A DNA stretch of 64,000 bases from a virus: positions 1 through 64,000 of IMG/VR virus record IMGVR_UViG_3300035698_012088. One strand, given 5' to 3'. The translations under genes were made by a program, and so were the position numbers. Positions 29,439 through 64,000 of the stretch are shown here, in pieces. Position 1 is the stretch's first letter; the number at the start of each line of letters is the position of its first letter. Below the pieces are notes generated by a model. It was not told where the DNA came from. It made no database searches and saw only the letters and a list, made by a program, of their open reading frames with translations.

Positions 29439-32066
29439 ATGCCTTTAGGCGGTTCAACCCTATATTCGTTTATAGATGCAGTCAACGCTGCACTAGAGAT
29501 TCAAGCATCAGATGACCATTGGGCTTTTTCAGAAGATACTGGAGTAGTTCTAGGTAAGGTGATAAACGCCAAAACCTTGTCTATTTCAGAACCAGATACT
29601 CAATTTGCAGTATCTCCCTATATCACTCTATTAACAACTGATGCCCATCTATTCCCTAATGGTATAGTGTTGGACGAGCTTATTGTTAAAGCCACTGCAG
29701 ATATCACAGAAGATGTTATACTGGAGATCTGGACAGACCCTCAGAACTTCCTCTCTACTGTTGTCACAGCCTCCTTTTTAGCTTCTGATGAGACATCTGC
29801 TTTAATTACAGGAAGTCTAGGAAGGGTTCCTCCTAATGCAGTAGTTAAAATAAGTATTCCTAATGTTAATATAGATGAAATGCATGTTGCTATTCTATAC
29901 CATGAAGAATTGGCTTATTCTTCTAGTGCATCTAGCTCAAGTATTAGCTCTAGCTCAAGTATTAGTTCTTCTTCCAGCTCAATCTCCAGTAGTAGTTCTA
30001 TCTCAAGTAGTGCAACTTCATCTGGATCATCTGGGTCAAGTGGATCTTCAGGGTCCTCTAAGAGTTCAGAGTCTAGTAGTTCTAGTTTCTCAAGCAGTAG
30101 TTCTGAGAGTAGTTCTGTAAGTTCTAGTGTCTCTAGTAGCTCTGTAAGTTCAAGCAGTATTTCAAGTAGTATCTCAAGTTCAAGCAGTATCTCAAGTTCT
30201 ATATCTAGTTCTAGTAGCATTTCTAGTTCTATATCCAGTTCTAGCAGTATCTCAAGTTCTATAAGCAGCTCAAGTATTAGTTCTAGTTCTAGCATAAGCT
30301 CTAGTTCTATATCTAGTTCTAGCATAAGCTCTAGTTCTATTAGCAGTTCTAGCATCTCTAGTAGTTCAATATCTAGTTCAGTTTCTAGTAGTAGTTCAGA
30401 ATCTAGTTCTGTAAGTTCTAGTTCTGAATCCAGTTCAATATCTAGTGCTTCAAGTTCAATCTCTAGTAGCAGTTCAGGGAGCAGTTCTGTTTCTAGTTCT
30501 ATTACTTCTTCTAATTCCTCTGGGTCTAGTGGGTCAAGTGGATCAAGTGGGTCATCTGCCAGTTCTGAATCTAGTAGCTCTAGTTACTCTAGTTCCAGTA
30601 TTTCCAGTTCTTCAATTAGTTCCATATCTAGTTCAATTTCTAGCATAAGTTCTGGGTCTAGTTCTGTGAGTTCTAGTTCAGTATCTAGTTCAATATCTAG
30701 TGCTTCAAGTTCTATCACATCTTCTAATTCCTCAGGATCTTCAGGATCTTCAGGATCTTCTGCTAGAGTATCCTCTGTGAGTAGCAGTAGTATTTCTAGT
30801 AGTAGTTCTATTTCAAGCAGTTCAAGTATAAGTTCTTCTGTTTCTAGCTCTTCAAGTATCTCTAGTTCTATAAGTAGTTCTTCCTCTGTTAGTTCAGTAT
30901 CTAGTTCTGTTTCAAGTAGCTCTATCAGTTCTAGTTCTATAAGTAGTTCTTCTTCTACTAGTTCTTCAGTATCTAGCATAAGCAGTTCTGTTTCAAGCAG
31001 TTCCAGCATAAGCAGTTCTAGCATAAGCTCTTCAAGTTCTAGCAGCATAAGCAGTTCTGTTTCAAGTAGCTCTATCAGTTCTAGTTCTATAAGTAGTTCT
31101 TCTTCTATAAGTTCAGTATCTAGCTCAAGTATCTCTAGTAGCTCTATAAGCAGCTCAAGTATTTCTAGTAGCTCTATAAGCAGCTCAAGTATTTCTAGTA
31201 GCTCTATAAGCAGTTCTGTTTCTAGTAGTAGTTCAGAATCTAGTTCTGTGAGTTCTAGTTCTAGTTCTGTTTCAAGTAGCTCTACAAGCTCTAGTTCTAT
31301 AAGTAGTTCTTCAATAAGCAGTGCGTCAAGCAGTTCTGTTTCTAGCTCTAGTTCAGTATCTAGTTCTAGTTCTGTTTCAAGCAGCTCTATCAGTTCTAGC
31401 ATCTCTAGTAGTTCTGTTTCTAGCTCTAGTGTTTCAAGTAGTTCTATAAGTAGTTCTGTAAGCTCTAGTGTCTCTAGCAGTTCAGTATCTAGCTCAAGTA
31501 TTTCAAGTAGTTCTGTTTCTAGCTCAAGTATTTCTAGTAGTTCCATTTCTTCATCAATAAACAGCAGCTCTTCTATATCTAGTTCTATAAGTTCGAGTTC
31601 TTCTATATCTAGTTCCAGTTCTATTTCTAGTTCAACATCAAGTTCAAGTACATCAAGTGACTCCAGTTCATCAAGTTCTATTTCTTCAGAGAGCAGCGCT
31701 TCATCAAGTGCCACCTCTAGTGGATCTTCTGGGTCTAGTGGATCAAGTGGATCTTCTGCAAGAGTCTCTTCTGTGAGTAGCTCTAGTGTTTCAAGTAGCT
31801 ATAGCAGTTCAGTATCTAGCTCAAGTATTTCTAGTGTATCTAGCAGTAGTTCCTCTGTGTCTAGTACTAGTTCAGCAAGTTCTATCAGTTCTTCAGTCTC
31901 TAGTTCTAGTTCAGACTCTAGCTCTATAAGCTCTAGTTCAAGCAATTCATCTTCTATAAGCTCCAGTTCTTCAGAATCTAGTTCTAGAAGTTCTGTTTCA
32001 AGTAGTACTAGTAGTGCAAGTAGTAAAAGTTCCTCTAGCTCAAGTGGTGAAGTTCAGCCCGATTAA
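29439..32066 (+). CDS. Poly-serine protein (N-terminal beta domain plus ~709-aa Ser tract)
   Basis: GAGGA RBS; uninterrupted ORF. Confidence 0.85.
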   Translation: MPLGGSTLYSFIDAVNAALEIQASDDHWAFSEDTGVVLGKVINAKTLSISEPDTQFAVSPYITLLTTDAHLFPNGIVLDELIVKATADITEDVILEIWTDPQNFLSTVVTASFLASDETSALITGSLGRVPPNAVVKISIPNVNIDEMHVAILYHEELAYSSSASSSSISSSSSISSSSSSISSSSSISSSATSSGSSGSSGSSGSSKSSESSSSSFSSSSSESSSVSSSVSSSSVSSSSISSSISSSSSISSSISSSSSISSSISSSSSISSSISSSSISSSSSISSSSISSSSISSSSISSSSISSSSISSSVSSSSSESSSVSSSSESSSISSASSSISSSSSGSSSVSSSITSSNSSGSSGSSGSSGSSASSESSSSSYSSSSISSSSISSISSSISSISSGSSSVSSSSVSSSISSASSSITSSNSSGSSGSSGSSARVSSVSSSSISSSSSISSSSSISSSVSSSSSISSSISSSSSVSSVSSSVSSSSISSSSISSSSSTSSSVSSISSSVSSSSSISSSSISSSSSSSISSSVSSSSISSSSISSSSSISSVSSSSISSSSISSSSISSSSISSSSISSSSISSSVSSSSSESSSVSSSSSSVSSSSTSSSSISSSSISSASSSSVSSSSSVSSSSSVSSSSISSSISSSSVSSSSVSSSSISSSVSSSVSSSSVSSSSISSSSVSSSSISSSSISSSINSSSSISSSISSSSSISSSSSISSSTSSSSTSSDSSSSSSISSESSASSSATSSGSSGSSGSSGSSARVSSVSSSSVSSSYSSSVSSSSISSVSSSSSSVSSTSSASSISSSVSSSSSDSSSISSSSSNSSSISSSSSESSSRSSVSSSTSSASSKSSSSSSGEVQPD
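29919..32045 (+). repeat. Ser low-complexity tract
   Basis: Mixed TCN/AGY codons; SSSSI periodicity; four (SSG)n blocks. Confidence 0.9.
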
Positions 32067-32082
32067 TTTTGAGGATATATAA

Positions 32083-32535
32083 ATGGCAATAAAACAACCC
32101 ATAGGCACAGATCCCCTAAGTAATCCAGATCATGGTCTATCACATAGAATCATAGCTGTTGATGAAGCTGCCCCAGTTAAAACAGTCACTGTAGATGAGA
32201 ATGGAACCACAAGGATTGGGGATCAATCTGGCCCAGACTATCTAAAAATAGACTCTGCAGGTAATGTTACCTTTTTAGGAGATGCTACTATAGCGCTACC
32301 CTATGCTAATATTCTCATGGTAGCCACTGCAGGAGCACCCTTTTCCAGTATCAAAGCTGCTAATGACTCTATTGGGGATGCCTCAGTGTCTAATAGATAC
32401 TGCATTCTTGTGAATCCAGGTACTTATGTCGAAGATCCTATTATTATGCAAGACTATGTAGACATTAAAGCTATTGGGAGTGCTTGGTCCACTGTAGTTA
32501 CTCCAACTGCAATAGGCGATACGTATGTCTTCTAG
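32083..32535 (+). CDS. Virion fibre-like protein ending in the start of a beta-helix domain
   Basis: GAGGA RBS; FSSIKAA...ILVNPGTYVE pectin-lyase-like cap, then an abrupt stop. Confidence 0.65.
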   Translation: MAIKQPIGTDPLSNPDHGLSHRIIAVDEAAPVKTVTVDENGTTRIGDQSGPDYLKIDSAGNVTFLGDATIALPYANILMVATAGAPFSSIKAANDSIGDASVSNRYCILVNPGTYVEDPIIMQDYVDIKAIGSAWSTVVTPTAIGDTYVF

Positions 32536-34116: not shown

Positions 34117-34126
34117 GAATAAGACA

Positions 34127-34825: not shown

Positions 34826-34843
34826 TCGGTACCTAAGAGTGAG

Positions 34844-35536
34844 ATGTTTATGAAACTCTCTATTGTAATGCCTTGTGAAAAAGATAGAGTGCCTCTATTA
34901 GAAAAAACCTTACAGAGATATTCTGAAATCATTGAATCAACAGAAGTAGAATTTATTCTTCCCTCCAGATCCCTTACAGAGATGTCCGCCCCTGGCTTTA
35001 ATATAAAAGTTATACCATATATTTATGATGAGGGTGTGTTCAATTGTTCTATGGCTCTGAACCTGGGGGTTAAAAACAGTTCCTATGAGAATATAATTAT
35101 TACTTGTCCTGAAGTAATACCTGCTCCAAATGTGTTAAAGGTTTTCAAAGAGAAGGGAAGAGGCAATTATCTCTGTACTGCATATGATTTAATGCCAGAT
35201 GGCTCTATAGGGCCTTTACTTGTATCTAAGGACTTTAGGGGAGAGACTCCAGGATTATACTTCTTAGCTTTGTTTAAAAAGGAAGATATAGAATTTATAA
35301 ATGGATGGGATGAGGGGTTCATGGGAGGGTATGCTTGGGAGGATAGTGAATATGGGGATAGATTTATCAGGGCCGGCCTATCCTTTGAGATATTAGAAGA
35401 GGCCTTGGCTTACCATCAGTATCACAAAAGAGGTATAGGGGATACTAAAATGTACTATGTAAATGAAACAAAGAAGCTGAAAAACGATTACAACGAGATT
35501 ATAAGACCTAAGAAAGGACTACATTATGAAAAGTAA
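34844..35536 (+). CDS. Glycosyltransferase, GT-A (GT2/GT7C-like)
   Basis: LSIVMP, FNCSMALNLG, GWDEGF.GYAWED motifs. Confidence 0.8.
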   Translation: MFMKLSIVMPCEKDRVPLLEKTLQRYSEIIESTEVEFILPSRSLTEMSAPGFNIKVIPYIYDEGVFNCSMALNLGVKNSSYENIIITCPEVIPAPNVLKVFKEKGRGNYLCTAYDLMPDGSIGPLLVSKDFRGETPGLYFLALFKKEDIEFINGWDEGFMGGYAWEDSEYGDRFIRAGLSFEILEEALAYHQYHKRGIGDTKMYYVNETKKLKNDYNEIIRPKKGLHYEK

Positions 35537-37715
35537 AGATGTATACAGCCCCTATAAATTTGCTCATTTTTTACCTAAGCTAAAAAGTATAAAAAAGGGA
35601 GAGATAGCCTCTCCTGTGAATATGCAGATAGATTTAACTAATAAATGCACCAACAAGTGTATTTGGTGTTATTACTTGATTCATGAACACTTAGATGACT
35701 TTAGTACACAGGACATTATACCATATAAAGATGCCATAAGAATCCTATCTCAATTTAAAGGTGCTGGAGGAAAGAGTGTGGAGTTTAGTCTTAAAGGGGA
35801 TGAGTTAATACCTCTCTATACAGATCAAGATGGATTAACCCTAAAACCTATACAAGAAGTCATAGAGAATAAAATTGAGAAAAACTCTTTTACAATCCAA
35901 GATAATGGAAATGTTTCACAAGACGCCATAACCGATTTTATAAAACATAAACAAACAGAGCCGTTATGGAAAGTGACTTTAGATAGTGGTAGACATATAA
36001 CAGTTACAAAATCTCACAGTATCTTTTTCTGGGAAAAGGGTAAAATTACATATAAGCCTCTAAAAGAAGCAAAGATAGGAGATAAAGTAGTATTATCTAA
36101 TGAAAAATACCCTACTAAACATATCTCTATAAACTCAGATTGGGCCAGACTACTGGGATATTTTGTAGCAGAAGGGTGTTTTTCATTTCAAAGAAAGCAT
36201 GTTCCACATGGCATACATTTTACTTTTGGATTTAATGCCCAGGAGCAAAAATATATCTCTGATGTGGCCAACATACTGACCACTAATGGATATAAAGCAG
36301 TAATTAGAAAATTTGATAATAAGACTAAGATTTCTGTTTGCAATAAAGAACTTACTGAAGATTTTTTAAAATTAGGTATAGGGGAAGGATCTAGGAACAA
36401 AAGAGTACCAGATTGTATTTTTAATGCAAATAAATCTGCTCAAATCAATTTTCTTACAGGGTTGTTTGCAGGAGATGGTAATTTTAGAGACACTCTGTAT
36501 AGACAGTGTTCTAGAAACTCTTTGCATTTAAAAACCTCTTCTGTCCTTCTACAGAGAACTGTAGAATTTTTGTTATCTCAATTAGATATCTGGTGTACCC
36601 TATATGAAGGTATAAATTGTCCTAGAAGTATTGAGGGAAGATCTTTACCCGAAACTACATATTGTACCGTTAACATTCAAGGGAAAGATGAATTATTAAA
36701 ATTAGAATCAATAATTAAATTTATGGGCAAAGAGCTTAAGTACAAAGACAGTAAGTATTCTCATACAACAAAACATAAAAAAATAGAACATATTAGTGAG
36801 AATGTTATTGTCTTGCCCATTAAAAAAATAGAAGAGGTAGATAAAGAAAAGTATGTCTATGATATAAGTGTAGGAGAGTCTCATAGATTTATCTCTAGTT
36901 TTGGGATTCTATGTCATAACACAGGAGGAGGGGAGCCTTTACTACATCCTAATTTCATAGATATAAGCTCCCATGCTAGAGATCTAAACCTAGAGAGAGC
37001 TTTAGTTACTAATGGCCAATTATTGACAGAGCCTTATGCAGAAGAAGTTTCAGATTATGCATGGGTTAGGGTATCTCTTGACTCTGCTACAGAAGAGTCA
37101 TATGCTAAAATACACTGTTCCCCTAAAGAAAACTTTCATAAAGTACTAAGGAACATTAAATTATACATGACGAAGAAGCAGCCAGATTGTGTGTTTGGTA
37201 TCTCAGCTATTGCAGATGAGAACAATGCCGGTGAGTTATCTCAAATTGCAGAGATAGCTAAAGATCTAGGTGCTGATAATTTAAGGATTAGTTTAGCCCA
37301 CACTCCAAAGAAGGGATCAATCTTTGAGAACTGTTGGGATACTTTATTAGAGGAGATAGATAAAGCTAAGTCTCTAGAAGATGATAGTTTTAAAGTGTTC
37401 TCTTTTTCAAATAGAATAGCGGAGATAGAAAGGAAATCAAAAGGTGGTTTTTGTTATTATCATCACCTAACAACAGCAGTAGGAGCCAATGGAGCTGTTT
37501 ACCCCTGCTGCTACTTTAAATACATCAACAAGTATAACTTGGGAAATCTACACGAGAACTCTTTTGAAGAGATCTGGAATGGAGATACAAGAAAAGACTT
37601 TATTGATAATGTAGCTTGTGATTGTACAGGGAGTTGTTGGATGGTTGAGAAGAATGCATTTTGCAGATATTTAATGCTAGATGAGACAGAGATACCACAT
37701 TTGAATTTTCCATAA
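35526..37715 (+). CDS. Radical SAM protein with SPASM/twitch domain, intein-containing
   Basis: CTNKCIWC, TGGGEPLLHP, VTNG, RVSLDS, VYPCC, LGNL...FEEIW motifs. Confidence 0.88.
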   Translation: MKSKDVYSPYKFAHFLPKLKSIKKGEIASPVNMQIDLTNKCTNKCIWCYYLIHEHLDDFSTQDIIPYKDAIRILSQFKGAGGKSVEFSLKGDELIPLYTDQDGLTLKPIQEVIENKIEKNSFTIQDNGNVSQDAITDFIKHKQTEPLWKVTLDSGRHITVTKSHSIFFWEKGKITYKPLKEAKIGDKVVLSNEKYPTKHISINSDWARLLGYFVAEGCFSFQRKHVPHGIHFTFGFNAQEQKYISDVANILTTNGYKAVIRKFDNKTKISVCNKELTEDFLKLGIGEGSRNKRVPDCIFNANKSAQINFLTGLFAGDGNFRDTLYRQCSRNSLHLKTSSVLLQRTVEFLLSQLDIWCTLYEGINCPRSIEGRSLPETTYCTVNIQGKDELLKLESIIKFMGKELKYKDSKYSHTTKHKKIEHISENVIVLPIKKIEEVDKEKYVYDISVGESHRFISSFGILCHNTGGGEPLLHPNFIDISSHARDLNLERALVTNGQLLTEPYAEEVSDYAWVRVSLDSATEESYAKIHCSPKENFHKVLRNIKLYMTKKQPDCVFGISAIADENNAGELSQIAEIAKDLGADNLRISLAHTPKKGSIFENCWDTLLEEIDKAKSLEDDSFKVFSFSNRIAEIERKSKGGFCYYHHLTTAVGANGAVYPCCYFKYINKYNLGNLHENSFEEIWNGDTRKDFIDNVACDCTGSCWMVEKNAFCRYLMLDETEIPHLNFP
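35787..36920 (+). mobile_element. LAGLIDADG intein (378 aa)
   Basis: SLKGDE start, VTKSHS, LGYFVAEG and GLFAGDG, ends ILCHN|T; removal restores KSVEF|TGGGEP. Confidence 0.92.
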
Positions 37716-37724: not shown

Positions 37725-38567
37725 ATGGCTTTACCAGACACATGTGTTTTAGTTGATACAGATACTTCAGCAGCATCAGGAGGATACGTTCATACACCTA
37801 ATGAGTGGCCAACTATATTCTTTAGTGAGTCAACAGAGGGTTCAGCCACTGTTACACTTAAAGATAGAAGTGGGGATGACTATGATTTAACAGCAGGTAC
37901 CTATACCGTTACCTTAAATGTTAAAGAATTCTGTACAGATGCCGGTCCACAAATAACCAAAGAATGTACTATTACACCTCCAAGTACTGTTTCTGTAACT
38001 CTAGAGGCCGATGACTTACCCTTTGCAGGAGTATGGATTGGAGAATTTACTGTTACAGATGATGATTCCTCAGATAAAGTGATTGCCAGATTTAGAATGT
38101 ATTTAGATGTATCTTTAAATTACACATCTACAAATGCTAGTTACTGCCCCTTAACTGTGGCTGAGATCCGACTTCTAATAAGAGATAGACATCCTGAAGA
38201 GAATACCTTCCTAGAAGAAGTAGAGTTCTCGGATACAGAGATAGCTTTCTCTATCAGGAGACCTGTTGATATCTGGAATGAATCCCTTCCCCCTATTATG
38301 AAAACATATACACCTTTGACTTTTCCCTATAGATATCACTGGTCTGAGGGAGTAATTGGAGAACTATATAGAATGGCCTCCTTTAATCTGAATAGAAATG
38401 ATGTAGATGTAGCAACAGGGGGAGTAACAGTAGATGACAAAAGAGCTGATATCTATCTAAAGCTCTCTGAAGAATATATTAGTAGGTATAAACAATGGGT
38501 CATGAGTACTAAGTATTCTGTTAACATAGGAGAAGGCTTTGGGAGAACTTCCATAGGTTATTTTTAA
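37725..38567 (+). CDS. Probable head-tail adaptor/neck protein with N-terminal Ig-like domain
   Basis: Position; beta-rich N-domain plus helical adaptor-like C-domain (EFSDTEI...WNESLPP). Confidence 0.55.
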   Translation: MALPDTCVLVDTDTSAASGGYVHTPNEWPTIFFSESTEGSATVTLKDRSGDDYDLTAGTYTVTLNVKEFCTDAGPQITKECTITPPSTVSVTLEADDLPFAGVWIGEFTVTDDDSSDKVIARFRMYLDVSLNYTSTNASYCPLTVAEIRLLIRDRHPEENTFLEEVEFSDTEIAFSIRRPVDIWNESLPPIMKTYTPLTFPYRYHWSEGVIGELYRMASFNLNRNDVDVATGGVTVDDKRADIYLKLSEEYISRYKQWVMSTKYSVNIGEGFGRTSIGYF

Positions 38568-39430
38568 TGAGCACCAACCCTATTACAAAAGTATATGTCA
38601 CAGAATCTCCAACAGATAGGTCTAAACTTATACAATGGAAACTGGATCCTTCTTTCCCTGAGCTTACTAGTTATAGTTTCTATATAGAGACTGCTAGGGC
38701 AACTGATCCAAGTTGGACTAGGTTAAATCCTTCAGCGCCTATTGTAGATATGTGTTGGTATAGTGACCCTACTGTGTATAGATACAACTATAGACATGAC
38801 CTCTACTATAGAGTTGTCTTGGATGATGGAGGAACAGAGTACATCTCAGAGGCCAGTAATGTGAGAGGTACTTTGGATAAAACAGAGAGAAGAATGGTTA
38901 GAGCTGCTCTTGTTAATGAATATGAGAGATTTACTAAGTGGCATGTAGGAACTATAGGCTGGCTTCTAAAGAAGAGGATATATGGTACTGCTTGTACAGT
39001 ATGTGCAGATTTTGATCTACCCAATGATGGAGGATTAGCTTCTTGCTCTACCTGTTATGGTACTGGGATTGTAGGAGGGTACTACCAAGGTTATCCTTAT
39101 TATGTAGACTTCACAAAACTAGATGTACATGACAAAGATATAGTGATCCCTTTTGGTACAGAGGATAATCCTGAACTATTGGGTAGATGTATAGCGTATC
39201 CTATATTGTCATCTCAAGACCTATGGGTAGAAAAAGACACCAACAAGAGATACGTTATAAGGCAAATCCAGACACTGGCAAGAATAAGAGATACTGTTAT
39301 ATCTTATACAGCAGTTTTTAAAGAGTTGCCTGGAACAAGAGTGGAATATGACGTACCCGTTTATGGAGATACAGCTCTGGTAAGCGATGTAGAAACAGAG
39401 TGGCGAAATGCAGTAGACTATAATCTGTAA
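38567..39430 (+). CDS. Probable neck/head-closure protein
   Basis: CTVC...CSTCYGTGIVGGY Zn motif; position after the adaptor. Confidence 0.55.
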   Translation: MSTNPITKVYVTESPTDRSKLIQWKLDPSFPELTSYSFYIETARATDPSWTRLNPSAPIVDMCWYSDPTVYRYNYRHDLYYRVVLDDGGTEYISEASNVRGTLDKTERRMVRAALVNEYERFTKWHVGTIGWLLKKRIYGTACTVCADFDLPNDGGLASCSTCYGTGIVGGYYQGYPYYVDFTKLDVHDKDIVIPFGTEDNPELLGRCIAYPILSSQDLWVEKDTNKRYVIRQIQTLARIRDTVISYTAVFKELPGTRVEYDVPVYGDTALVSDVETEWRNAVDYNL

Positions 39431-39459: not shown

Positions 39460-41481
39460 ATGAAAAACTTCCCAAAAGTAACTGTGGTTACTTTAGTAAA
39501 AGACAACACTGAACTGACCTTTAACTTCCTAGACTCTCTTAACAAATACACAAAGTATCCCAACTTCAATGTACTTTTAGGAGATACCGGGTCTACTAAA
39601 GAGAATCTAGAAGCCCTCAAGGGCACTGTCTCTATTTCAGAAGCCTTAGATATTTCTATAGTTGAACTAGGGGAATACTCTTATGGCAAAAACATGAACA
39701 AGCTGGTAAGAAACCATTTGCCCGATGACACTCAGTATGTGTGTTTCATGGATAATGATATAGACTTATGTAATGACTGTATCTCAATTTTCATGGATGT
39801 GGAGAGAAGGGAAGAGAAAGTGGCTACATACACCCCTTGTCTTCTATTTAAAACAGGAGAGGTGCAGTGTACCGGTTATATGGTAGAAGCCTATGAAGAT
39901 AAATCTCATAGACTTATGTTCCAAAATTTCAATGTACATAACTCAGATGTCCACACTCAATTTGAAGTATTATCTGGTTGTGGTTCTTTGATGATGGTGA
40001 ATAGAGACATCTTTGAAGACCTTGGTGGTTTTAACCTAGGGTATAAACACTGCTTATACGATGTAGATCTATGTATTAGAGCTGCAATAGCAGGATATAA
40101 GAACTTATGTCCGGGATATGCCTCGGCAAAACATTTCTTAGCTCAAACCAGAGGTAAAGAGAATCTGGAGGAAGAGTTCTCATTTGATATGACAAGGCTG
40201 TCTAATCTAATATATGCTTTTCCTGATGAATTAAATCCATTACTAACACATAAAGAGAGAGTTCTAAATAAAGCTGATTGGGGCATTTATAATACTTCAG
40301 AGTTAAGCTCTAATTATGAGGGACCTCAAATCTTCCATTTCCAAGATATCTCTATTGCAGAGAATATGGAAAAACAAATGGACTTTGAAACACGGTATAA
40401 TTTAAAGAGTAATGATGGGAAATTACATATAGTAGGATTTGGACATGATAATGGATGCGGGTATGTGAGACTAGATCTCCCAGCCAAGTATATCAATAGA
40501 AGACCAGATATGGAAATGTTCACTACACAAAAGATGTGTCCTGAATTAGCAAACTGGGGACATGTGTTTGTATGGGAAGCTCCTCCACCAAATGACTTCT
40601 CTCCTATGAGAGATATCTTTGCAGAGTATAGTGTCCCGCAGATGGTGGAGATTGATGACAATTACCTAGAGATAGATAAGTTTAATAAAGCTAAATATAT
40701 GATTCCAGAGGAACTAGTTTCAGAATGGTTCAATAAGTGTGGAGTATTTACAACTACTAGAGATAGTCTAAGAGACTTCTATATTTCTAAGTATCCTGAT
40801 ATGGAAGGACATACTCTACCAAACTGTGTAGACCATGAAGTGTTCTTGAATGCCTTGTATGACACTTCGGACACAGGCCCTCTCAAATTGGGATGGATGG
40901 GATGTGATTCTCACTTCTCTGATTTATTAGTAGTAACCCCTGTCTTAAAGAGACTACAAGAAGAGTATGGTAGAGAGTTAGATATTACCTTATTTGGCTG
41001 GGATGGTAAATTACCCAACAATGTACCTTTCAAATATAATGGTACTGATAATGTTATGGATGGAATAAGATTTACACATATCCCTTATGTACCTATTCAA
41101 GAGTATCATAGTTTTATCCAGACTCTAGGCTTAGATGTAATGTTTCTCCCCTTAGCAGATATAAACTTCAACAACAATGGTAAAAGCCCTGTTAAGTTCT
41201 TAGAAGCCGCATCAGCTAAGATGCCATGTGTTGTCTCAGATAGCTCTGTATTTAACTTCTTAACCCATGGAGAAGATGCTTTACTTTGTAAAACAGAAGA
41301 AGATTGGTATACTAATATTAAAGCTATGCTGGATAATGCAGAGCTAAGAAGAAAGATCAGTGCTAATGGATATAACACAGTCATGAATAAGTTCTCTATG
41401 GAGAATAATGTAGACAAGTGGGTAGATGTTTATACTCAATTAGCTACAAGTAAGTACAAACAATATAAGAGAGAAGACTAA
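39460..41481 (+). CDS. Bifunctional glycosyltransferase (GT2 N-domain plus GT4-like GT-B C-domain)
   Basis: GDTGST, FMDND, GGFN...DVDLC; C-half GCGYVR, EIDD, GWMG, KSPVKFLEA. Confidence 0.85.
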   Translation: MKNFPKVTVVTLVKDNTELTFNFLDSLNKYTKYPNFNVLLGDTGSTKENLEALKGTVSISEALDISIVELGEYSYGKNMNKLVRNHLPDDTQYVCFMDNDIDLCNDCISIFMDVERREEKVATYTPCLLFKTGEVQCTGYMVEAYEDKSHRLMFQNFNVHNSDVHTQFEVLSGCGSLMMVNRDIFEDLGGFNLGYKHCLYDVDLCIRAAIAGYKNLCPGYASAKHFLAQTRGKENLEEEFSFDMTRLSNLIYAFPDELNPLLTHKERVLNKADWGIYNTSELSSNYEGPQIFHFQDISIAENMEKQMDFETRYNLKSNDGKLHIVGFGHDNGCGYVRLDLPAKYINRRPDMEMFTTQKMCPELANWGHVFVWEAPPPNDFSPMRDIFAEYSVPQMVEIDDNYLEIDKFNKAKYMIPEELVSEWFNKCGVFTTTRDSLRDFYISKYPDMEGHTLPNCVDHEVFLNALYDTSDTGPLKLGWMGCDSHFSDLLVVTPVLKRLQEEYGRELDITLFGWDGKLPNNVPFKYNGTDNVMDGIRFTHIPYVPIQEYHSFIQTLGLDVMFLPLADINFNNNGKSPVKFLEAASAKMPCVVSDSSVFNFLTHGEDALLCKTEEDWYTNIKAMLDNAELRRKISANGYNTVMNKFSMENNVDKWVDVYTQLATSKYKQYKRED

Positions 41482-42110
41482 TGCCTTTATTCGCAGAACC
41501 AACATGGTCAGGAAGTATACAAGCCTATCCTGAGAGTTTTTTTGATAATGAGGATATAACTCCGTTTCAGATAACTGGAGCTATAGTGAGATTACTTCAA
41601 TATCAGTTTGGATATGTAGATAATATAGATAACCCCTTACTTAAGGGATATATATGGACAAATAATGGAGCAACTTCAAAGATACTAATAGGCCCTTCCT
41701 TTATGCGCAACGACGAGACTACTTCTGCTAAACCTGGAATCTTTGTAGAAAGACAGGATCTAGAGGCTACTACTATAGGGGTAAGGTATTTGAATGTTCA
41801 AGCAGAGTCCTTATCTACTCCTTTTGCAACAGGAAACTACAATAAGCATTTAACAGGAAAACATCTTATACTATGTGAAGGCATCTCAGGCACAGAAGCA
41901 GAGTTATTAGCTGAAGAGGTATTTACTAGGTTTATGCTAATGTCTCCTATATTAACATCTGATTTCAATTTAGACACAATAGATGTCAAGGGATTGGGGA
42001 AACAAGTGCCTAAGCCTAAACAAGCTTCTACCACTTTTGTCTCTTCAGTAGTTATAGCCTGGCAGAAGACATATAACTGGTCTATTGTAAATGAAGAACC
42101 GGAGCAATAA
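41481..42110 (+). CDS. Probable tail completion/terminator protein
   Basis: Position and EAELLAEEV helix pattern. Confidence 0.5.
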   Translation: MPLFAEPTWSGSIQAYPESFFDNEDITPFQITGAIVRLLQYQFGYVDNIDNPLLKGYIWTNNGATSKILIGPSFMRNDETTSAKPGIFVERQDLEATTIGVRYLNVQAESLSTPFATGNYNKHLTGKHLILCEGISGTEAELLAEEVFTRFMLMSPILTSDFNLDTIDVKGLGKQVPKPKQASTTFVSSVVIAWQKTYNWSIVNEEPEQ

Positions 42111-55066: not shown

Positions 55067-56119
55067 ATGATTGTTGTAACAGGTTGCCCAAGAAGCGGCA
55101 CAAGTCTCATGATGGATTGCTTAAGACACGCCCTAGGGGATGAGAGAATCTTAGGATTTAAATTCCCCCAAGAAGCTCGATTTGAAGCTGCCCAGAAAAA
55201 AGGGGAAGATGAGACAGACATCCACTTTGAGTCTAGACAATATGCTTTGGAGAAATTTAGACCTTCCCATGAAAAAAAGATTAAGTTATCTAAAGAAATG
55301 AACCCCAATGGCTTTTGGGAGTGTGGCTATACTGTCAGAGGTATGTCTTGGCATTTAGGAATGGAACACAAGAGTAACCAAGTTGTAAAGATTGTTTCTC
55401 AAGGTCTTATAAGGACAGATCCTAAATATGTAGATAAGATGATCTGTATGTGTAGACATCCCAGGGCAGTTGCTAAGTCCCAAGAGAACCTTAGAAGACT
55501 GCCTTTTATGAAACAAGAGGAAGAGAGGAAACTTAAGGTACATACTCCAGAGCAGTTTCTTAGAGTGACTGCTAGAGCAGCTAAATGGCTCATAGAGAAT
55601 CCTAATACAGAGCTTCTACTTGTTCAATTTGATAATCTTATCTCAGCACCTCAGGCTACACTCAAAAGTGTGGCCGATTTTATTGGGGAAGGAGACTTCT
55701 CTGACAACCCCGTAGACGCTAAATTAAAAAGATCTTATCCAAACATCAAGATTGATAGTCTCTTGTGGGAGCCCTCAGAAGAAATCTACGAGGCTTTACT
55801 TAATAAAGATTGGGAAAAGCTCTGGACTACTTTTGAAGCTGCCCAGGACGCATTAATTAAAGAGAACTCCAGGTCTGTTTGTTTTCGGACAGGCAAGAGA
55901 ATGGCGTATAAAGAATGTATTAGCTGTAAAACCAGGGCAGTTACAAGAGATAACTTCAGAACTACAGCTTCTAAGGATGAAGTAGACTGGTGGAATGAAC
56001 CCTGTATGTTTGAATGCCTCTATGATAAAGACAATGAATCTATCACTATTAAGGAATCTATTAAGAATAATTTCTGGAAAGAGAATACGAGTTCAATAAA
56101 ACCTAGAAGGAATAAGTAA
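55067..56119 (+). CDS. Sulfotransferase-like P-loop protein
   Basis: VVTGCPRSGTSLMM (5'-PSB loop), NPNGFWE, MCRHPRAVAKS. Confidence 0.7.
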   Translation: MIVVTGCPRSGTSLMMDCLRHALGDERILGFKFPQEARFEAAQKKGEDETDIHFESRQYALEKFRPSHEKKIKLSKEMNPNGFWECGYTVRGMSWHLGMEHKSNQVVKIVSQGLIRTDPKYVDKMICMCRHPRAVAKSQENLRRLPFMKQEEERKLKVHTPEQFLRVTARAAKWLIENPNTELLLVQFDNLISAPQATLKSVADFIGEGDFSDNPVDAKLKRSYPNIKIDSLLWEPSEEIYEALLNKDWEKLWTTFEAAQDALIKENSRSVCFRTGKRMAYKECISCKTRAVTRDNFRTTASKDEVDWWNEPCMFECLYDKDNESITIKESIKNNFWKENTSSIKPRRNK

Positions 56120-57144
56120 TGCAAAAACTAATCTTAACACATCATCTATCTCCAGGAGATGTTTTAATGTTAACCGCCGCTATAAGAGATCTTCATGAAA
56201 ACTACCCAGACCAATTCATTACCGATGTTAGGACTTCTTGTGGAGAACTTTGGGAAAACAATCCATTCATCACCCCTTTAGATGAAAATGATCCCGATGT
56301 AGAAGTTATGAAATGTCAATATGAATTAGTGCACCATAGTAATCAAGGCTCCCATCACTTTATTCACGGCTTTGTGGATTTCTTAAATGATGCCTTAGAC
56401 CTTAAGATTAAACCTGGGAAGTTCAAAGCCGAGATCTACTTAAGCAACGATGAGAAGTGTTGGCTATCTCAGATATATGAAGAGAATAAAAAAGATATTC
56501 CATATTGGTTAGTCAATGCAGGAACTAAATCAGACTATACTGCAAAGGGATGGGGACTACATAATTACCAAGCAGTAGTAGATGCCTTACCGGATATCAC
56601 TTTTGTTCAAGTAGGAGCAGGAGATCATAGACATAAAGACTTAACAGGAAAGAATGTAATAAACTTAGTAGGTAAAACTGAGATGAGACAATACATAAGA
56701 CTCTTCTATCATGCAGCAGGAGTATTAACAGGTGTTTCCTTACCTATGCATTTAGCAGCAGCAGTTCCTATGAAACCCTGTTACTTTAGAGCTAATAGAC
56801 CGTGTATAGTTATGGCAGGAGGAAGGGAACCTAGTGTATGGGAAGCCTATACTAATCATGCTTATATGCACACTTGTGGAATGATGGACTGTTGCGATGA
56901 TGGGGGATGCTGGAAGAGTAGAGCCTATCCTATTGGGGACGGTGATGACAAAGACAAAGATCTATGTGAAAGAACAGTAATTAGAGGTGGAGTAAAGATA
57001 CCTAAGTGTATGGATATGATTACACCTGAGGCAGTGGTACAGAAGATAGATGATTATCTAAGTACCTATGATTACTATGAAAACTGGGATCTAGATAAAG
57101 ACGGTATTGTAAGAGGAAGAAAGGAAAATCATGCAATTTTTTGA
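56119..57144 (+). CDS. GT9 (heptosyltransferase-like) glycosyltransferase
   Basis: SPGDVLML, NLVGKT, SLPMHLAAA motifs. Confidence 0.82.
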   Translation: MQKLILTHHLSPGDVLMLTAAIRDLHENYPDQFITDVRTSCGELWENNPFITPLDENDPDVEVMKCQYELVHHSNQGSHHFIHGFVDFLNDALDLKIKPGKFKAEIYLSNDEKCWLSQIYEENKKDIPYWLVNAGTKSDYTAKGWGLHNYQAVVDALPDITFVQVGAGDHRHKDLTGKNVINLVGKTEMRQYIRLFYHAAGVLTGVSLPMHLAAAVPMKPCYFRANRPCIVMAGGREPSVWEAYTNHAYMHTCGMMDCCDDGGCWKSRAYPIGDGDDKDKDLCERTVIRGGVKIPKCMDMITPEAVVQKIDDYLSTYDYYENWDLDKDGIVRGRKENHAIF

Positions 57145-57739
57145 CCCGACAAATGACTATTTACCAGATGAGATGGGTAGCTTTATAGCCCATTTTGAAA
57201 CAGAAAGTGTAAATGAATACATTAATAGGACTCTAATCCCCACCAGTGGGTGTAGTCTTACAAGTAGTAATACAAGTAGTAGTAGTAGCTCAATGAGTAC
57301 CTGTAGCACCAGTAGTGGGGGGAGCCTCTCTAGTAGGAGTTACAATGGAGGGAAGTTGATCAAGGAGTTTCCAATAGAGTGCTTAAGAGTATACATGCCT
57401 AATGGGTACACTTGGACCAGGGGCTTTAATATGGATGTGAAGTTTACTGTTTTAGAAAATGGTTTTGTCTTTGCACAACTAATAGAAGATAACTATGATC
57501 TTGAGGTGCAGTGGAATGAGAAACTAACTAAACCTCCCCTATTAACTACATTTACAGATATGTCAATTGCTTATGGAGTAGGGATAAACTCTTCTCCAAA
57601 ATACATAGGACCTTTTCAACAAGAAGTAATAAATGGATATGGAGATAGCTTTAAAGTAGAAGCCACCTTATCTGAAGTTTCTTTAGACGAAGAAGTGATT
57701 GAGCAGTTGGAGGTTATATATACAGTGGAGAACTTATAA
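57131..57739 (+). CDS. Hypothetical protein with short Ser tract
   Basis: AAGGA RBS; SSNTSSSSSS tract. Confidence 0.7.
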   Translation: MQFFDPTNDYLPDEMGSFIAHFETESVNEYINRTLIPTSGCSLTSSNTSSSSSSMSTCSTSSGGSLSSRSYNGGKLIKEFPIECLRVYMPNGYTWTRGFNMDVKFTVLENGFVFAQLIEDNYDLEVQWNEKLTKPPLLTTFTDMSIAYGVGINSSPKYIGPFQQEVINGYGDSFKVEATLSEVSLDEEVIEQLEVIYTVENL

Positions 57740-59819: not shown

Positions 59820-59959
59820 CTGAAGAAAAGAAGAATATAACAATACAAGATGATTGGTATAAAATTGATGGTGAGTGGTATCACTGTGTTACCTTAAATC
59901 ACCATAGATATGTAAATGGAGTGCTACAGGAGGAGTCTAGAGATGGGCAAATGGGATAA
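59804..59959 (+). CDS. Small hypothetical protein (51 aa, not in ORF track)
   Basis: GAGGAGG RBS; MDTGITEE...DGEWYH...; fills the gap between two glycosyltransferases. Confidence 0.55.
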   Translation: MDTGITEEKKNITIQDDWYKIDGEWYHCVTLNHHRYVNGVLQEESRDGQMG

Positions 59960-61857: not shown

Positions 61858-61903
61858 TTTATGTACCTTGTAGAAGAAGTCAGAAAAGACGGGAATAAAT
61901 TAA

Positions 61904-62536
61904 ATGCCTAGACTTCTAAATTCATCTTTATTCTTAATACACATCCCTAAGACTGCGGGAACATCCTTAGTTAATAAATTTGGAAAAGATACCCATGTAA
62001 ACTGGAATAGACTGTCCAGGTCCCATAAAACTCTTCCCGAGATGTGGGATACTGAATGGTTTAAGTATTATAAGAACCAAGATTTAACATATATTACTGT
62101 AGTTAGGAATCCTTGGGATAGGCTTGTATCTGTCTATAAATTTAGCTTCATACATAAGTGGTATAAAAATACTTCTTTGACTTTTAAAGAATGGGTAGAA
62201 AAAGAACCTTTGGATAGATTAGAGGAATACTACCCAAAAGAGGAGTACGTTCTAAAAAGCAAAAAGCTAGGTCAGAGAGGAGACATACTACATCTATATA
62301 GCCCTCAGTACAGATTTGTTTACGACGAAAACATGAACACCCATATGGACCATATACTTAGATATGAAACTTTAGATAGGGATTTGGAGAAAATAGACAC
62401 GACCTTCCTCCCCTTACCTAAAAGCAATATAAGTAAAGATAAAACGCCATATCAGGAATTTTACACAGATGAGTTGAGAGAAAGAGTAGGAGAGATATAC
62501 TCAAAGGATATAGAGGTATTTGACTATGAGTTCTAG
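61904..62536 (+). CDS. Carbohydrate sulfotransferase (Sulfotransfer_2-like)
   Basis: HIPKTAGTS, VRNPWDRLVSVY, RYETL motifs. Confidence 0.85.
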   Translation: MPRLLNSSLFLIHIPKTAGTSLVNKFGKDTHVNWNRLSRSHKTLPEMWDTEWFKYYKNQDLTYITVVRNPWDRLVSVYKFSFIHKWYKNTSLTFKEWVEKEPLDRLEEYYPKEEYVLKSKKLGQRGDILHLYSPQYRFVYDENMNTHMDHILRYETLDRDLEKIDTTFLPLPKSNISKDKTPYQEFYTDELRERVGEIYSKDIEVFDYEF

Positions 62537-63179
62537 TATTTACGCACCATGTGGAAAAGGCTTAGGAGACTGTTGGGCATCTATTAGTTATGCACTGTTG
62601 GAGTCAGAGAAACTAGGAGAACCAGTTAAGTTTTCAGATCACTACTTTAATAGAAAGGGTAAGAGGAGAAATATATCCTATAAGTTACATGAGATAATCC
62701 CTTTATTTGACACTACAGGGGAGATTCTAATAACCCCCCAAGATCCAGATAGATACCTCCTATGGAGTGAGGTATATGCTAGACCTTATCTTCCAACTAA
62801 AAAGAAATGGAATAGAGGCTCTATAGTCACATATCAGTTCGACGGGAAATCACATTCCTGTAAGAACCTACCTAGCTTTGCTATGGAGGAGAGGGTATTG
62901 GGAGTAATAGAAAACATTGGACACAAAGTATATAAACTAGGTGGAGATATGTCTTTAAAAGATGCAATTGTCCTCTTAGCAGGATCAGCCTATTTTGTAG
63001 GAGTAGATTCTGGATTTGCACATATGGCACATAGTGTAAGAGTACCTGTGTATATGATTAGAAATGGAAGAACAGTAGATAACATTACTATGGAATCTCA
63101 TAAGTATAAACCTATGGTCCTAGTAGAAACACCAGAGGAATTCATAGAAGTGATTGGAGACAGTAGATATGGGGTATGA
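62526..63179 (+). CDS. GT9-like glycosyltransferase
   Basis: GLGD and FVGVDSGFAHMA motifs. Confidence 0.75.
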   Translation: MSSSIYAPCGKGLGDCWASISYALLESEKLGEPVKFSDHYFNRKGKRRNISYKLHEIIPLFDTTGEILITPQDPDRYLLWSEVYARPYLPTKKKWNRGSIVTYQFDGKSHSCKNLPSFAMEERVLGVIENIGHKVYKLGGDMSLKDAIVLLAGSAYFVGVDSGFAHMAHSVRVPVYMIRNGRTVDNITMESHKYKPMVLVETPEEFIEVIGDSRYGV

Positions 63180-63762
63180 TAGAAAATACTACAAGAGACA
63201 CTTAGACCAGTATCATGAGTGGGAGCAAGCTTTAGCCTTGGATTACTTTGTTCACTACGCCCCCAACTCAGTATTAGATCTAGGCTGTGGCATAGGCTCC
63301 TACCTATTAGGATTTAAGAAGTGTGGGCTGGAAGAAGTTAAGGGTATAGAGTATAACTATGAAATAGCTAAAGAGTTTATGGATAAAGACATCATAGACC
63401 ATATAGTCCAAGGGGATGTTACAGAAGATGATGTTATGCATCCCTATAGATGGATACAGTGTATATGGTGTATAGAAGTAGCAGAGCATATTAAGCCAGA
63501 ATCAACAGATAGTTTCTTAGATGTATTAACTAGCCACGCTTTACAGAAGATAGTATTATCCGCAGCGCCTCCTGGACAGAAAGGAACGGGACATATTAAT
63601 TGTAGACCTCGGAACTTCTGGATAAATGAATTAGACAAGAGAGACTTCATATATCTTAAGGATGAGTCAAGGCTTATGGCACTAAGATGGGAAATTCTTG
63701 GAGCACCAGAATATATAGTAGACAATATCATGCTATTTAAAAGGAACATTCATGTCAACTAG
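63169..63762 (+). CDS. Class I SAM-dependent methyltransferase
   Basis: VLDLGCGIG, CIEVAEHI, GTGHINC; GGAG RBS before ATG 63169. Confidence 0.85.
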   Translation: MGYDRKYYKRHLDQYHEWEQALALDYFVHYAPNSVLDLGCGIGSYLLGFKKCGLEEVKGIEYNYEIAKEFMDKDIIDHIVQGDVTEDDVMHPYRWIQCIWCIEVAEHIKPESTDSFLDVLTSHALQKIVLSAAPPGQKGTGHINCRPRNFWINELDKRDFIYLKDESRLMALRWEILGAPEYIVDNIMLFKRNIHVN

Positions 63763-64000
63763 TTTAATTTACATGTCAGGGTTTGGGCCTACACATGCTT
63801 CTATGTGTAATACTTTAGTAAAGTCACTTAGGGTCTTTGGAGAGTATAGTGGAGATATTTTAGTCTTTACAGATATCCCAGATATCTTTGATAAGGACAC
63901 TAGGTTACATGTTAAGAATATACCAGGACTGACCACTAGACATGAGAGAGGTAATTTAAGACTTAAATGTACAGAGCTGTTTCCCTTTGAGAACTATAGA
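63752..64000 (+). CDS. Probable glycosyltransferase (partial, runs off the window)
   Basis: AAGGA RBS; SLRVFGEYSGDILVFTD, a GT-A-like N-terminus. Confidence 0.5.
   Translation, partial: MSTSLIYMSGFGPTHASMCNTLVKSLRVFGEYSGDILVFTDIPDIFDKDTRLHVKNIPGLTTRHERGNLRLKCTELFPFENYR

Follow-up and report, generated by a model that had tools for sequence, protein, structure and literature searches.

The question raised by this locus is whether a tailed phage encodes both the carriers and the enzymes for a modified coat on its own particle, since giant poly-Ser proteins are found here next to glycosyltransferase and sulfotransferase genes. The window analysed (64,000 nucleotides) covers the initial 64 kb of a 159-kb contig that comes from a salt lake and belongs to an uncultured phage, a distant relative of the Salmonella phage Arash; at 159 kb the genome is approximately 82% complete. 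The original prediction had read the Ser tracts as dense acceptors of O-glycans forming bristles on the virion.

Four genes on the same strand carry Ser tracts of 711, 213, 52 and 293+487 aa, lengths whose exact values still depend on assembly from short reads, as no tract is spanned in full by one contig; they amount to 1,756 residues, or 5,268 nt, in agreement with the ~709, 210, 50 and 291+485 aa (~5 kb) first proposed. Ser represents 1,379 of the 1,756 residues (78.5%), with Ile at 8%, Val at 4% and one Pro; the interruptions are nearly always single residues, and the prevailing pattern is of runs of 2-6 Ser split by a single Ile or Val, S(2-6)-I/V. In 729 kb of control phage DNA, one ORF had at least 20 Ser per 30-residue window. 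The tracts use four Ser codons (TCT, AGT, TCA and AGC), the tandem repeats of their DNA are imperfect, with periods of 15-30 nt, and they are in frame with folded domains; on these three grounds, they are coding and not a simple DNA repeat. AGY codons make up 41-49% of the Ser codons in the tracts versus 28% in the other genes, and the phage encodes a tRNA-Ser(GCU). Logan contigs of the source run tiled most of the region 28,433-35,600, differing by at most 1 letter and leaving short gaps in the tract of the first gene; exact pieces of the same region were also present in other salt-lake samples, and the Ser-tract indels between samples (3, 3 and 12 nt) were all in-frame, as in sequence under frame constraint.

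The folded parts of these proteins give some indication of their nature. P0001 (29439..32066, +; 875 aa) has a predicted N-terminal jelly-roll (~residues 40-160) followed by the 711-aa tract (residues 161-871, 76% Ser). The AF2 model of this head (pLDDT 80.6) found its best PDB matches in XepA (Z 10.3), the phage 7-7-1 tail fibre (Z 9.9) and the KHP40 cement protein (Z 9.2), and the model thus identifies it as a jelly-roll of the phage fibre-tip or capsid cement protein kind; its relatives belong to a domain family that closes collagen-like or beta-helix fibre proteins at their C-terminal end, one of them within a tail module. P0002 (32525..33553, +) starts with its 213-aa tract (residues 1-213, 80% Ser) and ends with a conserved 129-aa domain, of which stand-alone homologues are encoded by two sister genomes (G001 and G002) and by 10 contigs from metagenomes; in one 76%-identical relative the Ser tract is 37 aa long. 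P0003 (33553..34116, +) consists of a 135-aa N-terminal domain and a 52-aa Ser tail (residues 136-187); homologues of the domain are the product of the gene that follows the homologue of the P0002 C-terminal domain in G002 and in the metagenome locus L033 and, in G001, the N-terminal part of a Ser-rich protein of 1,031 aa. The 150-aa protein encoded between P0001 and P0002 (32083..32535, +) had no match in Pfam or PHROG. P0004 (51130..54969, +) is the most elaborate, with a 40-aa basic N-terminus, the 293-aa tract (41-333), a propeller, the 487-aa tract (631-1117) and a 162-aa C-terminal domain for which the homologue search found none. Seven 42-aa blades compose the propeller (Pfam Lactonase-type 7-bladed propeller, 33 bits), encoded by a 126-nt repeat in 6.9 copies.

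The genomic position of these genes was evaluated by comparison with Arash and the sister genomes. The major capsid protein (27322..28272, +), with 3% Ser and no Ser extension, is 26% identical to that of Arash over 93% of its length and 63-69% identical to those of G001 and G002, with a weak PHROG major head match. Further downstream, two core virion genes (37725..39430, +) are homologues of Arash gp233 and gp234 (hhalign probabilities 96% and 97%), and a third (41481..42110, +) of gp235 (probability 92%); all are kept in G001 and G002. In Arash, gp233-gp235 were detected in a virion preparation by mass spectrometry, within a broad virion proteome listing 116 proteins (PMC10585845). P0001-P0003 lie between the capsid gene and these homologues, and an enzyme island is bounded by P0004 and another gene conserved in the sister genomes, the next core gene being at 67417-68139. 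This synteny supports a position of the Ser genes and the enzyme island in the late/structural block, as predicted; the three enzymes claimed to be inside the structural operon were likewise found, at 34844, 35526 and 39460, between the capsid gene at 27322 and the gp233-gp235 homologues.

We considered that the Ser proteins might instead be late products that do not enter the particle; modified or unmodified, they could serve within the infected cell or beyond it, for example as adhesive or matrix proteins that are released, as decoys or as cargo. Neither P0002 and P0003 nor the C-terminal domain of P0004 has a recognisable virion fold, and no gene from 41481 to 50772 matches a PHROG structural family, as would suit such products. 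However, the Ser genes are closely packed on the same strand in the capsid-to-tail block, the P0001 head comes from a fibre-tip domain family and the predictions gave none of the four Ser proteins a signal peptide, a hydrophobic N-terminus or a membrane segment, which leaves them without an export signal; we therefore regard this explanation as improbable.

The enzymes are numerous. By Pfam, the glycosyltransferases amount to seven genes with eight domains, matching the minimum of seven GT2-, GT4-, GT9- and GT8-like genes proposed earlier. A GT-A enzyme (34844..35536, +; Glyco_transf_7C, 26.3 bits, cut-off 23) and a GT2 + GT4 fusion (39460..41481, +), the latter inserted between core virion genes, are both absent from G001 and G002. 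The radical SAM/SPASM enzyme (35526..37715, +) is split by an intein that carries a LAGLIDADG endonuclease; its extein has no homologue in G001 and G002, where only the intein was matched. After P0004 come a PAPS-type sulfotransferase (55067..56119, +), a GT9 heptosyltransferase-like enzyme (56119..57144, +), a 202-aa protein with a 33-aa Ser/Thr linker and the ending ...YTVENL (57131..57739, +), a GT4 (58761-59819, +), a GT2+Glyco_transf_7C enzyme (59916-60740, +), a Sulfotransfer_2 enzyme (61904-62536, +; PF03567, 50 bits, cut-off 22), a GT9-like protein (62520-63179, +), a class I methyltransferase (63154-63762, +) and the start of a GT8-like gene (63752..64000, +), which extends to 64576 in the genome and scored 23.4 bits, just under the Pfam cut-off of 24.3. 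The two sulfotransferases, the methyltransferase and the radical SAM enzyme expected alongside were all recovered; a third sulfotransferase lies elsewhere in the genome, and an FkbM-type and one further methyltransferase follow the GT8-like gene just past the window. No membrane segment was predicted in any of these enzymes.

The substrate of these enzymes could in principle be the phage DNA, with the glycosyltransferases acting on hydroxymethyl bases and not on protein, and the hypermodification of DNA with glycans by phage glycosyltransferases is well documented (Pyle 2024, as cited in PMC12619734). We find this very improbable, as there is no gene of the thymidylate-synthase/hydroxymethylase family in the 159 kb (genome ~82% complete), the genes are in the structural and not in the replication block, and eight glycosyltransferase domains alongside sulfotransferases and methyltransferases of the sugar type (FkbM) do not resemble the known pattern of DNA modification.

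Judged by family, the enzymes are generic representatives of their superfamilies. None of them matched a known protein O-glycosyltransferase at the level of a family: among GtfA/GtfB- and SdgA/B-type priming enzymes, the sole NCBIfam match was that of the SdgA model to the GT4 at 58761 (25.5 bits, cut-off 800), and the Aah/TibC model TIGR04414 matched only the protein at 62520 (20.1 bits, cut-off 200). For the GT4 at 58761 and the GT2/7C enzyme at 59916, NCBIfam matches were generic only and far under the cut-offs. The GT9 at 56119 is the sole island enzyme kept in the sister genomes (53% identity to G001, 47% to G002); its family has five invariant Cys in the C-terminal part, and a family profile searched against solved structures did not match TibC. 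An orthologue is also present in G003 and G004, which lack real Ser tracts and include a complete phage genome of 329 kb.

These observations bear on a different explanation, in which the Ser stretches stay unmodified and serve as flexible spacers, acting as entropic bristles or tethers, in rapidly evolving proteins of host interaction, and the island alters a polysaccharide of the host envelope (LPS, capsule or EPS) in the course of infection, for instance to keep out superinfecting phages. The GT9 family is one of LPS-core enzymes, and the orthologue of the GT9 at 56119 occurs in a phage lacking tracts; among named proteins, those closest to the GT2-GT4 fusion, only 21-27% identical, are O-antigen or cell-wall glycosyltransferases. 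Moreover, relatives and metagenome contigs encode Ser-rich linkers (SSV, SSE, SEAP and SxSPS repeats) joining small Cys domains to variable C-terminal domains, including matrixin-like and LamG-like ones, with no glycosyltransferase gene among the scanned flanks; where relatives carry such linkers, glycosyltransferase genes are scarce or lacking close by, so that the tracts might be simple spacers. Polyserine linkers are known to play a mere spacer role in enzymes secreted by marine bacteria that degrade polysaccharides. The CAZyme linkers of Saccharophagus, Teredinibacter and Cellvibrio, thought to be flexible extended spacers, resemble P0004 and P0002 in that Ser runs join folded modules; however, those enzymes are secreted and their linkers measure tens of residues, whereas here tracts of up to 711 residues occur in phage late genes beside modifying enzymes, and the folded parts of the Ser proteins had no CAZyme or CBM match in Pfam.

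We consider the spacer explanation rather unlikely. The membrane-segment prediction, negative for every island protein, counts somewhat against it, and it leaves several facts unexplained: the three enzymes wedged among core virion genes, the recurrence of a sulfotransferase beside poly-Ser genes in several unrelated phages, described below, and the joint rise of tract length and enzyme number in one genome. As to the latter, G001 and G002 encode modest Ser-rich linker proteins and one or two glycosyltransferases, and no sulfotransferase was found in them, whereas the genome studied here has the extreme tracts, eight glycosyltransferase domains, three sulfotransferases and the radical SAM enzyme. 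By this comparison of the gene contents, the extreme tracts and the enzyme set are a joint gain of this genome.

The link between enzymes and tracts is best evaluated for the sulfotransferase at 55067, encoded directly after P0004 and provided with a Cys-rich C-terminal extension. It matches Pfam Sulfotransfer_3 (PF13469, 36.5 bits, cut-off 27) and Sulfotransfer_1, among solved structures it is most closely related to the CurM sulfotransferase, cytosolic SULTs and HS 3-OST, and the residues G-x-x-R-S-G-T-S (5'-PSB loop) and R-x-P-x-x-V-A-x-S-Q (3'-PB) are invariant in ten of its orthologues. By these matches, the 55067 and 61904 proteins are assigned to the PAPS-dependent sulfotransferase superfamily, a membership from which the acceptor is not readable. 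Full-length orthologues of 55067 were found at 11 other loci, and poly-Ser or Ser-rich proteins are encoded within ~1.5 kb of the orthologue in L033, L061/62, L063 and L066, four independent loci of which three are on contigs of 231-476 kb; a Ser-rich gene within 10 kb is missing at 6 of the 11. L063 also encodes a radical SAM enzyme 24% identical to that at 35526 and, just downstream of the sulfotransferase orthologue, an ORF 39% identical to the N-terminal 61 aa of the 32083 protein. Among the island enzymes tested, 55067 is thus the one with the best-supported link to poly-Ser proteins, and gene neighbourhoods support the view that it travels with them in unrelated phages. Across genomes, co-occurrence with poly-Ser genes was seen for the sulfotransferase, at four further places; the GT9 has an orthologue in a phage without real tracts.

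The explanation that we prefer, tentatively and just short of an even chance, is that the four Ser proteins are appendage or decoration proteins whose tracts are modified in the cytoplasm by the neighbouring enzymes to give a brush on the particle; the virion location, the modification, the order of the reactions and the role are what we infer. Folded modules, namely a jelly-roll of fibre-tip/cement type, a propeller of seven blades and small domains particular to the lineage, would be borne on very long, uncharged, flexible Ser tracts. Being without signal peptides, the proteins would be synthesised in the host cytoplasm, where their Ser hydroxyls would be modified by adjacent-encoded enzymes with no predicted membrane segment. 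The 55067 enzyme might sulfate either sugars placed on Ser by the glycosyltransferases, in a proteoglycan-like model, or the tract directly, and the outcome would be a hydrated, probably anionic brush around the particle. The original reading of glycan-acceptor bristles is thus supported in part: it is favoured by the structural-block position, the P0001 jelly-roll, the joint gain and the 55067 link, and weakened by the GT9 found without tracts and by the missing family-level match to an O-glycosyltransferase; the shielding, adhesion or host mimicry proposed as roles are guesses.

Several known systems resemble the proposed one in part. In the mycobacteriophages Che8, Corndog and Myrna, the C-termini of capsid and tail-tube proteins are O-glycosylated by phage-encoded enzymes (Freeman et al. 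2023, as presented in PMC12619734 and PMC11256854). Phage-encoded glycosyltransferases are common to both, and so would be the proposed cytoplasmic action on the phage's own structural proteins and a glycan coat. There, the described acceptors are short C-terminal extensions of the subunits, and the enzymes number two to four; in the present genome, tracts of 50-710 aa on proteins of their own are the candidate acceptors, the capsid protein has no extension, and sulfotransferases, methyltransferases and a radical-SAM enzyme go beyond the toolkit described in those sources. Gram-positive SRRPs have Ser-rich regions O-glycosylated intracellularly by adjacent-encoded GtfA/GtfB, and are exported by accessory Sec (PMC6973325, PMC7948813). 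They are similar in their very long Ser-rich regions bearing folded modules, as the P0004 propeller between tracts and the P0001 jelly-roll, and in the adjacent enzyme genes, but show alternating Ser-X dipeptides, a signal peptide, an LPXTG anchor and aSec export, in contrast to the S(2-6)-I/V runs, the lack of signal peptide and of any GtfA/GtfB-level match observed here. TibC and AAH are cytoplasmic, GT9-related autotransporter heptosyltransferases that hyperglycosylate Ser of a repetitive protein (PMC4358343); the window has two GT9-like genes, one (56119) with the five invariant C-terminal Cys, but the TibC/AAH acceptor is a folded beta-helix and not a Ser tract, and a family match was not reached. 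Finally, Mimivirus and its relatives surround the capsid with a layer of fibrils glycosylated by virus-encoded machinery (PMC8456856, PMC10117803), in effect a viral 'glycocalyx'; Mimivirus is, however, a giant virus of eukaryotes with fibril proteins that are not poly-Ser and with sugars produced by viral pathways, and sulfation is not reported. Our literature search found no paper describing pairs of poly-Ser and glycosyltransferase genes in phage genomes.

The poly-Ser/enzyme pattern appears to be widespread in uncultured large phages. Since the 55067-type sulfotransferase also adjoins poly-Ser proteins in unrelated giant phages, such phages probably build a chemically modified "fur". A more specific proposal, which we regard as doubtful, is a mobile module common to unrelated large phages, in which poly-Ser appendage proteins are combined with a dedicated PAPS sulfotransferase that sulfates the tract, or a minimal sugar on it, to give poly-sulfoserine or proteoglycan-like polyanionic bristles; if true, both the protein modification and the surface chemistry of the virion would be undescribed for any phage. 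The 55067 link also hints that bacterial-type sulfotransferases may have a new class of acceptors. Modified tracts would mean that tailed phages can assemble a dense polymer coat, tailored by enzymes, on carriers devoted to it, much as giant viruses and animal cells do; such a coat would bear on adsorption, on how the particles behave as colloids in brine, on their resistance to proteases and grazers, and on host recognition.

The parent record of the window is a 159,412-bp IMG/VR virus, estimated to be ~82% complete, and nearly all the long ORFs of the window lie on the + strand. Sampled sequence words of the window were found in salt-lake metagenomes of 13 studies, with 99% of them present in one run and 30–44% in five others; no RNA dataset was among the runs listed as containing them. 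The portal (2763–4661), two large RNA-polymerase genes (7562–13591 and 14809–17736), a head protein (23761–25188) and the major capsid protein (27322–28272) are identical in the range of 26–30% to their counterparts in Arash, an orphan Salmonella myovirus, and in three Vibrio phages. Closer relatives in IMG/VR are the sister genomes G001 (164,893 bp, terminal repeats, 53% GC) and G002 (160,705 bp, 39% GC), whose capsid proteins show 63–69% identity to that of the window. Compared with Arash gp216, the product of the second RNA-polymerase gene is longer by an insert of ~380 aa (residues 324–708), probably an intein in addition to that of the radical-SAM gene described below.

Four + strand genes, P0001 (29439–32066), P0002 (32525–33553), P0003 (33553–34116) and P0004 (51130–54969), carry Ser tracts of 711, 213, 52 and 293 + 487 residues, respectively, for a sum of 1,756 residues and 5,268 nt; no comparable gene was found elsewhere in the 159 kb. 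The tracts consist of 1,379 Ser (78.5%), with Ile at 8%, Val at 4%, one Pro and hardly any charged residues, and are built of Ser runs 2–6 long, separated by single residues at 343 of 359 interruptions. A simple DNA repeat does not account for the tracts, which draw on four different Ser codons and repeat only imperfectly, with periods of 15–30 nt. They are enriched in AGY codons, and the phage carries a tRNA-Ser(GCU) gene reading AGY (158844–158932 of the parent record, outside the window). Logan contigs of the source run cover most of the Ser region with at most one differing letter and short gaps within the P0001 tract; the exact tract lengths depend on the original short-read assembly, as no Logan contig spans a whole tract. 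Exact pieces of the region are present in independent salt-lake samples, between which in-frame indels of 3, 3 and 12 nt were observed at 31355, 31582 and 34091–34097. This is the pattern expected of coding sequence, and it follows that tract length is polymorphic in nature. Thus, the four genes with long Ser tracts of the original prediction were borne out, while an assembly artefact or a non-coding repeat was excluded by the codon mix, the in-frame junctions with folded domains, the exact pieces in other samples and the indels in multiples of three.

The position of these genes was evaluated against the backbone kept in both sister genomes, namely the genes at 28507, 37725, 38567, 41481, 43662 and 67417. 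Profile comparison paired three of them with homologues in Arash, 37725 with gp233 (96% probability), 38567 with gp234 (97%) and 41481 with gp235 (92%); all three Arash proteins were found by mass spectrometry in Arash particles, the proteome of which is generous, amounting to 116 proteins (PMC10585845). Three insertions interrupt the backbone: (i) P0001, the 32083 gene, P0002, P0003, a lipoprotein gene, a GT-A glycosyltransferase and the radical-SAM enzyme, bounded by the capsid-adjacent gene on one side and the gp233 homologue on the other; (ii) a GT2-GT4 fusion, between the gp234 and gp235 homologues; (iii) P0004 and the entire enzyme island, ahead of the gene at 67417. Therefore, the claim that three enzymes lie inside the structural operon was correct, these being the GT-A, the radical-SAM enzyme and the GT2-GT4 fusion. 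None of the genes between 41481 and 50772 matched PHROGs, and upstream of them the PHROG matches were limited to weak ones with head families; a sigma-70 scan found fewer promoter-like sites than in shuffles, a terminator scan no convincing intergenic terminators, and inspection by eye no shared intergenic motif. The lipoprotein gene (34127–34825, between P0003 and the GT-A) encodes 232 aa, in which a lipoprotein signal (MRYLIAVALVCLVGC; the lipobox is LVGC) and, around residue 156, a strongly hydrophobic segment were recognised; BLAST found no counterpart in G001 or G002, and from its sequence the product is a candidate spanin-like or superinfection-exclusion lipoprotein.

The folded parts of the Ser proteins, none of which has a predicted signal peptide, were analysed separately. 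Residues 40–160 of P0001 belong to a family that makes up the C-terminus of fibre-like proteins; collagen repeats or a beta-helix are present in some of these proteins, and in one unrelated viral contig such a protein sits between baseplate-wedge-like and tail-fibre-like genes. Its AF2 model is a jelly-roll (pLDDT 80.6), for which the best solved matches were PBSX XepA (Z 10.3) and the tail-fibre C-terminus of Agrobacterium phage 7-7-1 (Z 9.9), followed by the KHP40 capsid cement protein (Z 9.2) and capsid decoration chains of Pam1 and GP4; the specificity of these matches is limited, given that small jelly-rolls resemble many things. The modelled fold supports, but does not prove, that P0001 is a particle-surface protein. 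P0004 contains a propeller of seven blades, each of 42 residues, and its C-terminal domain is an orphan, for which an ESM Atlas look-up gave best scores of at most 0.85 and a word-index search zero homologues. The blades (52137–53003) are encoded by a 126-nt tandem repeat of 6.9 copies, 80% identical, a sign of recent duplication or homogenisation within the gene. P0002C, the C-terminal domain of P0002, and P0003N, the N-terminal domain of P0003, are lineage-specific; the P0002C model was poor (pLDDT 59), with fold searches at chance level, and hhalign compared the two domains at 23% probability.

In both sister genomes P0002C and P0003N occur without long tracts. They lie at the distal end of a structural block that covers 50 kb on one strand, beside proteins in which moderate Ser-rich repeats (SSESSIS, SSPVDV and similar) join small Cys-containing domains. 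Homologues of P0002C were found on ten metagenome contigs, with Ser-rich repeat proteins within a few kb at six of the eight usable loci; some of these proteins terminate with a matrixin-like or a LamG-like domain. The module has therefore long made use of Ser-rich linkers, which the window phage took to an extreme, with its enzyme set in parallel. In some metagenomic relatives (L025:5619–7610, L029:2321–4165, L025:9355–11046), Hint/intein-like domains were seen in the gene after the P0002C homologue, and nearby Ser-rich proteins have matrixin-like HExxH metalloprotease ends.

By Pfam, the enzymes of the window are the GT-A (34844), the radical-SAM/SPASM enzyme (35526–37715), interrupted by an intein that carries a LAGLIDADG endonuclease, the GT2-GT4 fusion (39460), a sulfotransferase (55067–56119), a GT9 (56119), a GT4 (58761), a GT2+7C (59916), a Sulfotransfer_2 enzyme (61904), a GT9-like protein (62520) and a methyltransferase (63154). 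The island extends beyond the window to 66,215 with a GT8-like gene (23.4 bits, below the Pfam cut-off of 24.3), an FkbM-type methyltransferase and one more methyltransferase, and a third sulfotransferase, of the Sulfotransfer_2 type, lies far from it (151527–152159 of the parent record). No membrane segment was predicted in any of the enzymes. NCBIfam and solved-structure searches placed them at superfamily level only: the NCBIfam scan of ten enzymes gave just generic sub-threshold matches, and sequence searches of solved structures with three glycosyltransferases and a GT9 profile gave no information on the acceptor. Viral-contig scans found no relatives of the GT2-GT4 fusion. DNA glycosylation as the role of the glycosyltransferases is unlikely, since a thymidylate-synthase family gene was not found in the 159 kb of this ~82% complete genome. 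The gene at 57131–57739, which overlaps the GT9 gene at its end, encodes a small protein with a 33-aa Ser/Thr linker and the C-terminus ...VIYTVENL.

Two enzymes, GT9 56119 and sulfotransferase 55067, were tested for a tie to the tracts. Of the island enzymes, only the GT9 is retained by the sister genomes (53% and 47% identity), G001 having one GT9 and a weak GT2 match and G002 a single member of each family; sulfotransferases and homologues of the radical-SAM extein are missing from both, and the radical-SAM intein alone was matched, by inserts within other genes of the two. GT9 orthologues are also encoded by a contig of 27% completeness and by a complete phage genome of 329 kb, both of which lack real Ser tracts, their few Ser-rich ORFs resembling antisense artefacts; thus, a GT9-serine link is not general for the 56119 subfamily. 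The proposed pairing of Ser tracts with glycosyltransferases across relatives stands only in part: its direction agrees in three genomes only, and the GT9 orthologue occurs without tracts as well. This counter-example, like the generic glycosyltransferase families, is accounted for by the main rival explanation, according to which the tracts serve only as flexible spacers and a host polysaccharide is remodelled by the island.

Sulfotransferase 55067 begins 98 nt past P0004. Full-length orthologues (35–49% identity, Cys-rich C-terminal extension included) were found at ten IMG/VR loci and on the metagenome contig L033, where the gene is directly upstream of a P0002C-like/P0003N-like pair and 1.4 kb from a Ser-rich protein. 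On the 476- and 296-kb contigs L061/L062 it is flanked by five same-strand poly-Ser proteins; on L063, a contig of 231 kb, 22 nt separate it from the end of a preceding poly-Ser ORF, and a protein of 652 aa (47% Ser) showing the same SSSS-I/V pattern comes after it; in L066 it is followed by a 682-aa poly-Ser protein. The six remaining, more distant orthologues (35–41% identity) have no Ser-rich genes within 10 kb. At a threshold of at least 20 Ser per 30-residue window, one ORF qualified in 729 kb of control phage DNA picked irrespective of serine content, while 3 distinct orthologue loci out of 10 did, far above the control rate, in a small test on loci that are not phylogenetically independent. 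A capsid-protein scan returned only G001 and G002, none of the orthologue contigs, and beyond the sulfotransferase only two window genes matched these contigs, both weakly in L063 (the 32083 protein and the radical-SAM enzyme); the sulfotransferase-poly-Ser pairing therefore appears, from these comparisons, to cross phage lineages. Both near-complete poly-Ser-positive genomes have 5–7 glycosyltransferase matches, as does one genome without Ser tracts.

The 55067 profile matches enzymes acting on acyl-chain hydroxyls, small-molecule hydroxyls and glycans, and weakly those acting on tyrosine. In the family alignment C272, C284, C287 and C313 of the extension are invariant and C317 nearly so; the extension is absent from the sequence-matched solved sulfotransferases, and may be a zinc-binding substrate-recognition module.

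The reading that fits best is that the four Ser proteins are particle appendage or decoration proteins and that their tracts are substrates of the adjoining enzymes, which have no predicted membrane segment; among these, as judged from sequence, sulfotransferase 55067 would be the best-supported partner. The spacer explanation leaves unexplained both the recurring sulfotransferase-poly-Ser adjacency and the insertion of enzymes between core virion genes. If the neighbouring enzymes modify the tracts, sugars could be placed first and then sulfated, giving a proteoglycan-like coat as in the original prediction, or the serines could be sulfated directly, two routes between which sequence cannot discriminate.

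Serine-rich carriers with dedicated enzymes are known in bacterial adhesins (PMC6973325, PMC7948813), and glycosylated fibrils in giant viruses (PMC8456856, PMC10117803). For mycobacteriophages, phage-encoded virion glycosylation is described, with short extensions at the C-termini of capsid and tail-tube subunits as the acceptors (PMC12619734, PMC11256854), whereas the candidate acceptors here are long tracts on separate proteins. In our literature search, neither poly-serine phage proteins nor their pairing with glycosyltransferases turned up in any paper, and the same was true of phage sulfotransferases tied to them. The mechanism proposed for the poly-Ser proteins and their enzymes would be open to direct testing.
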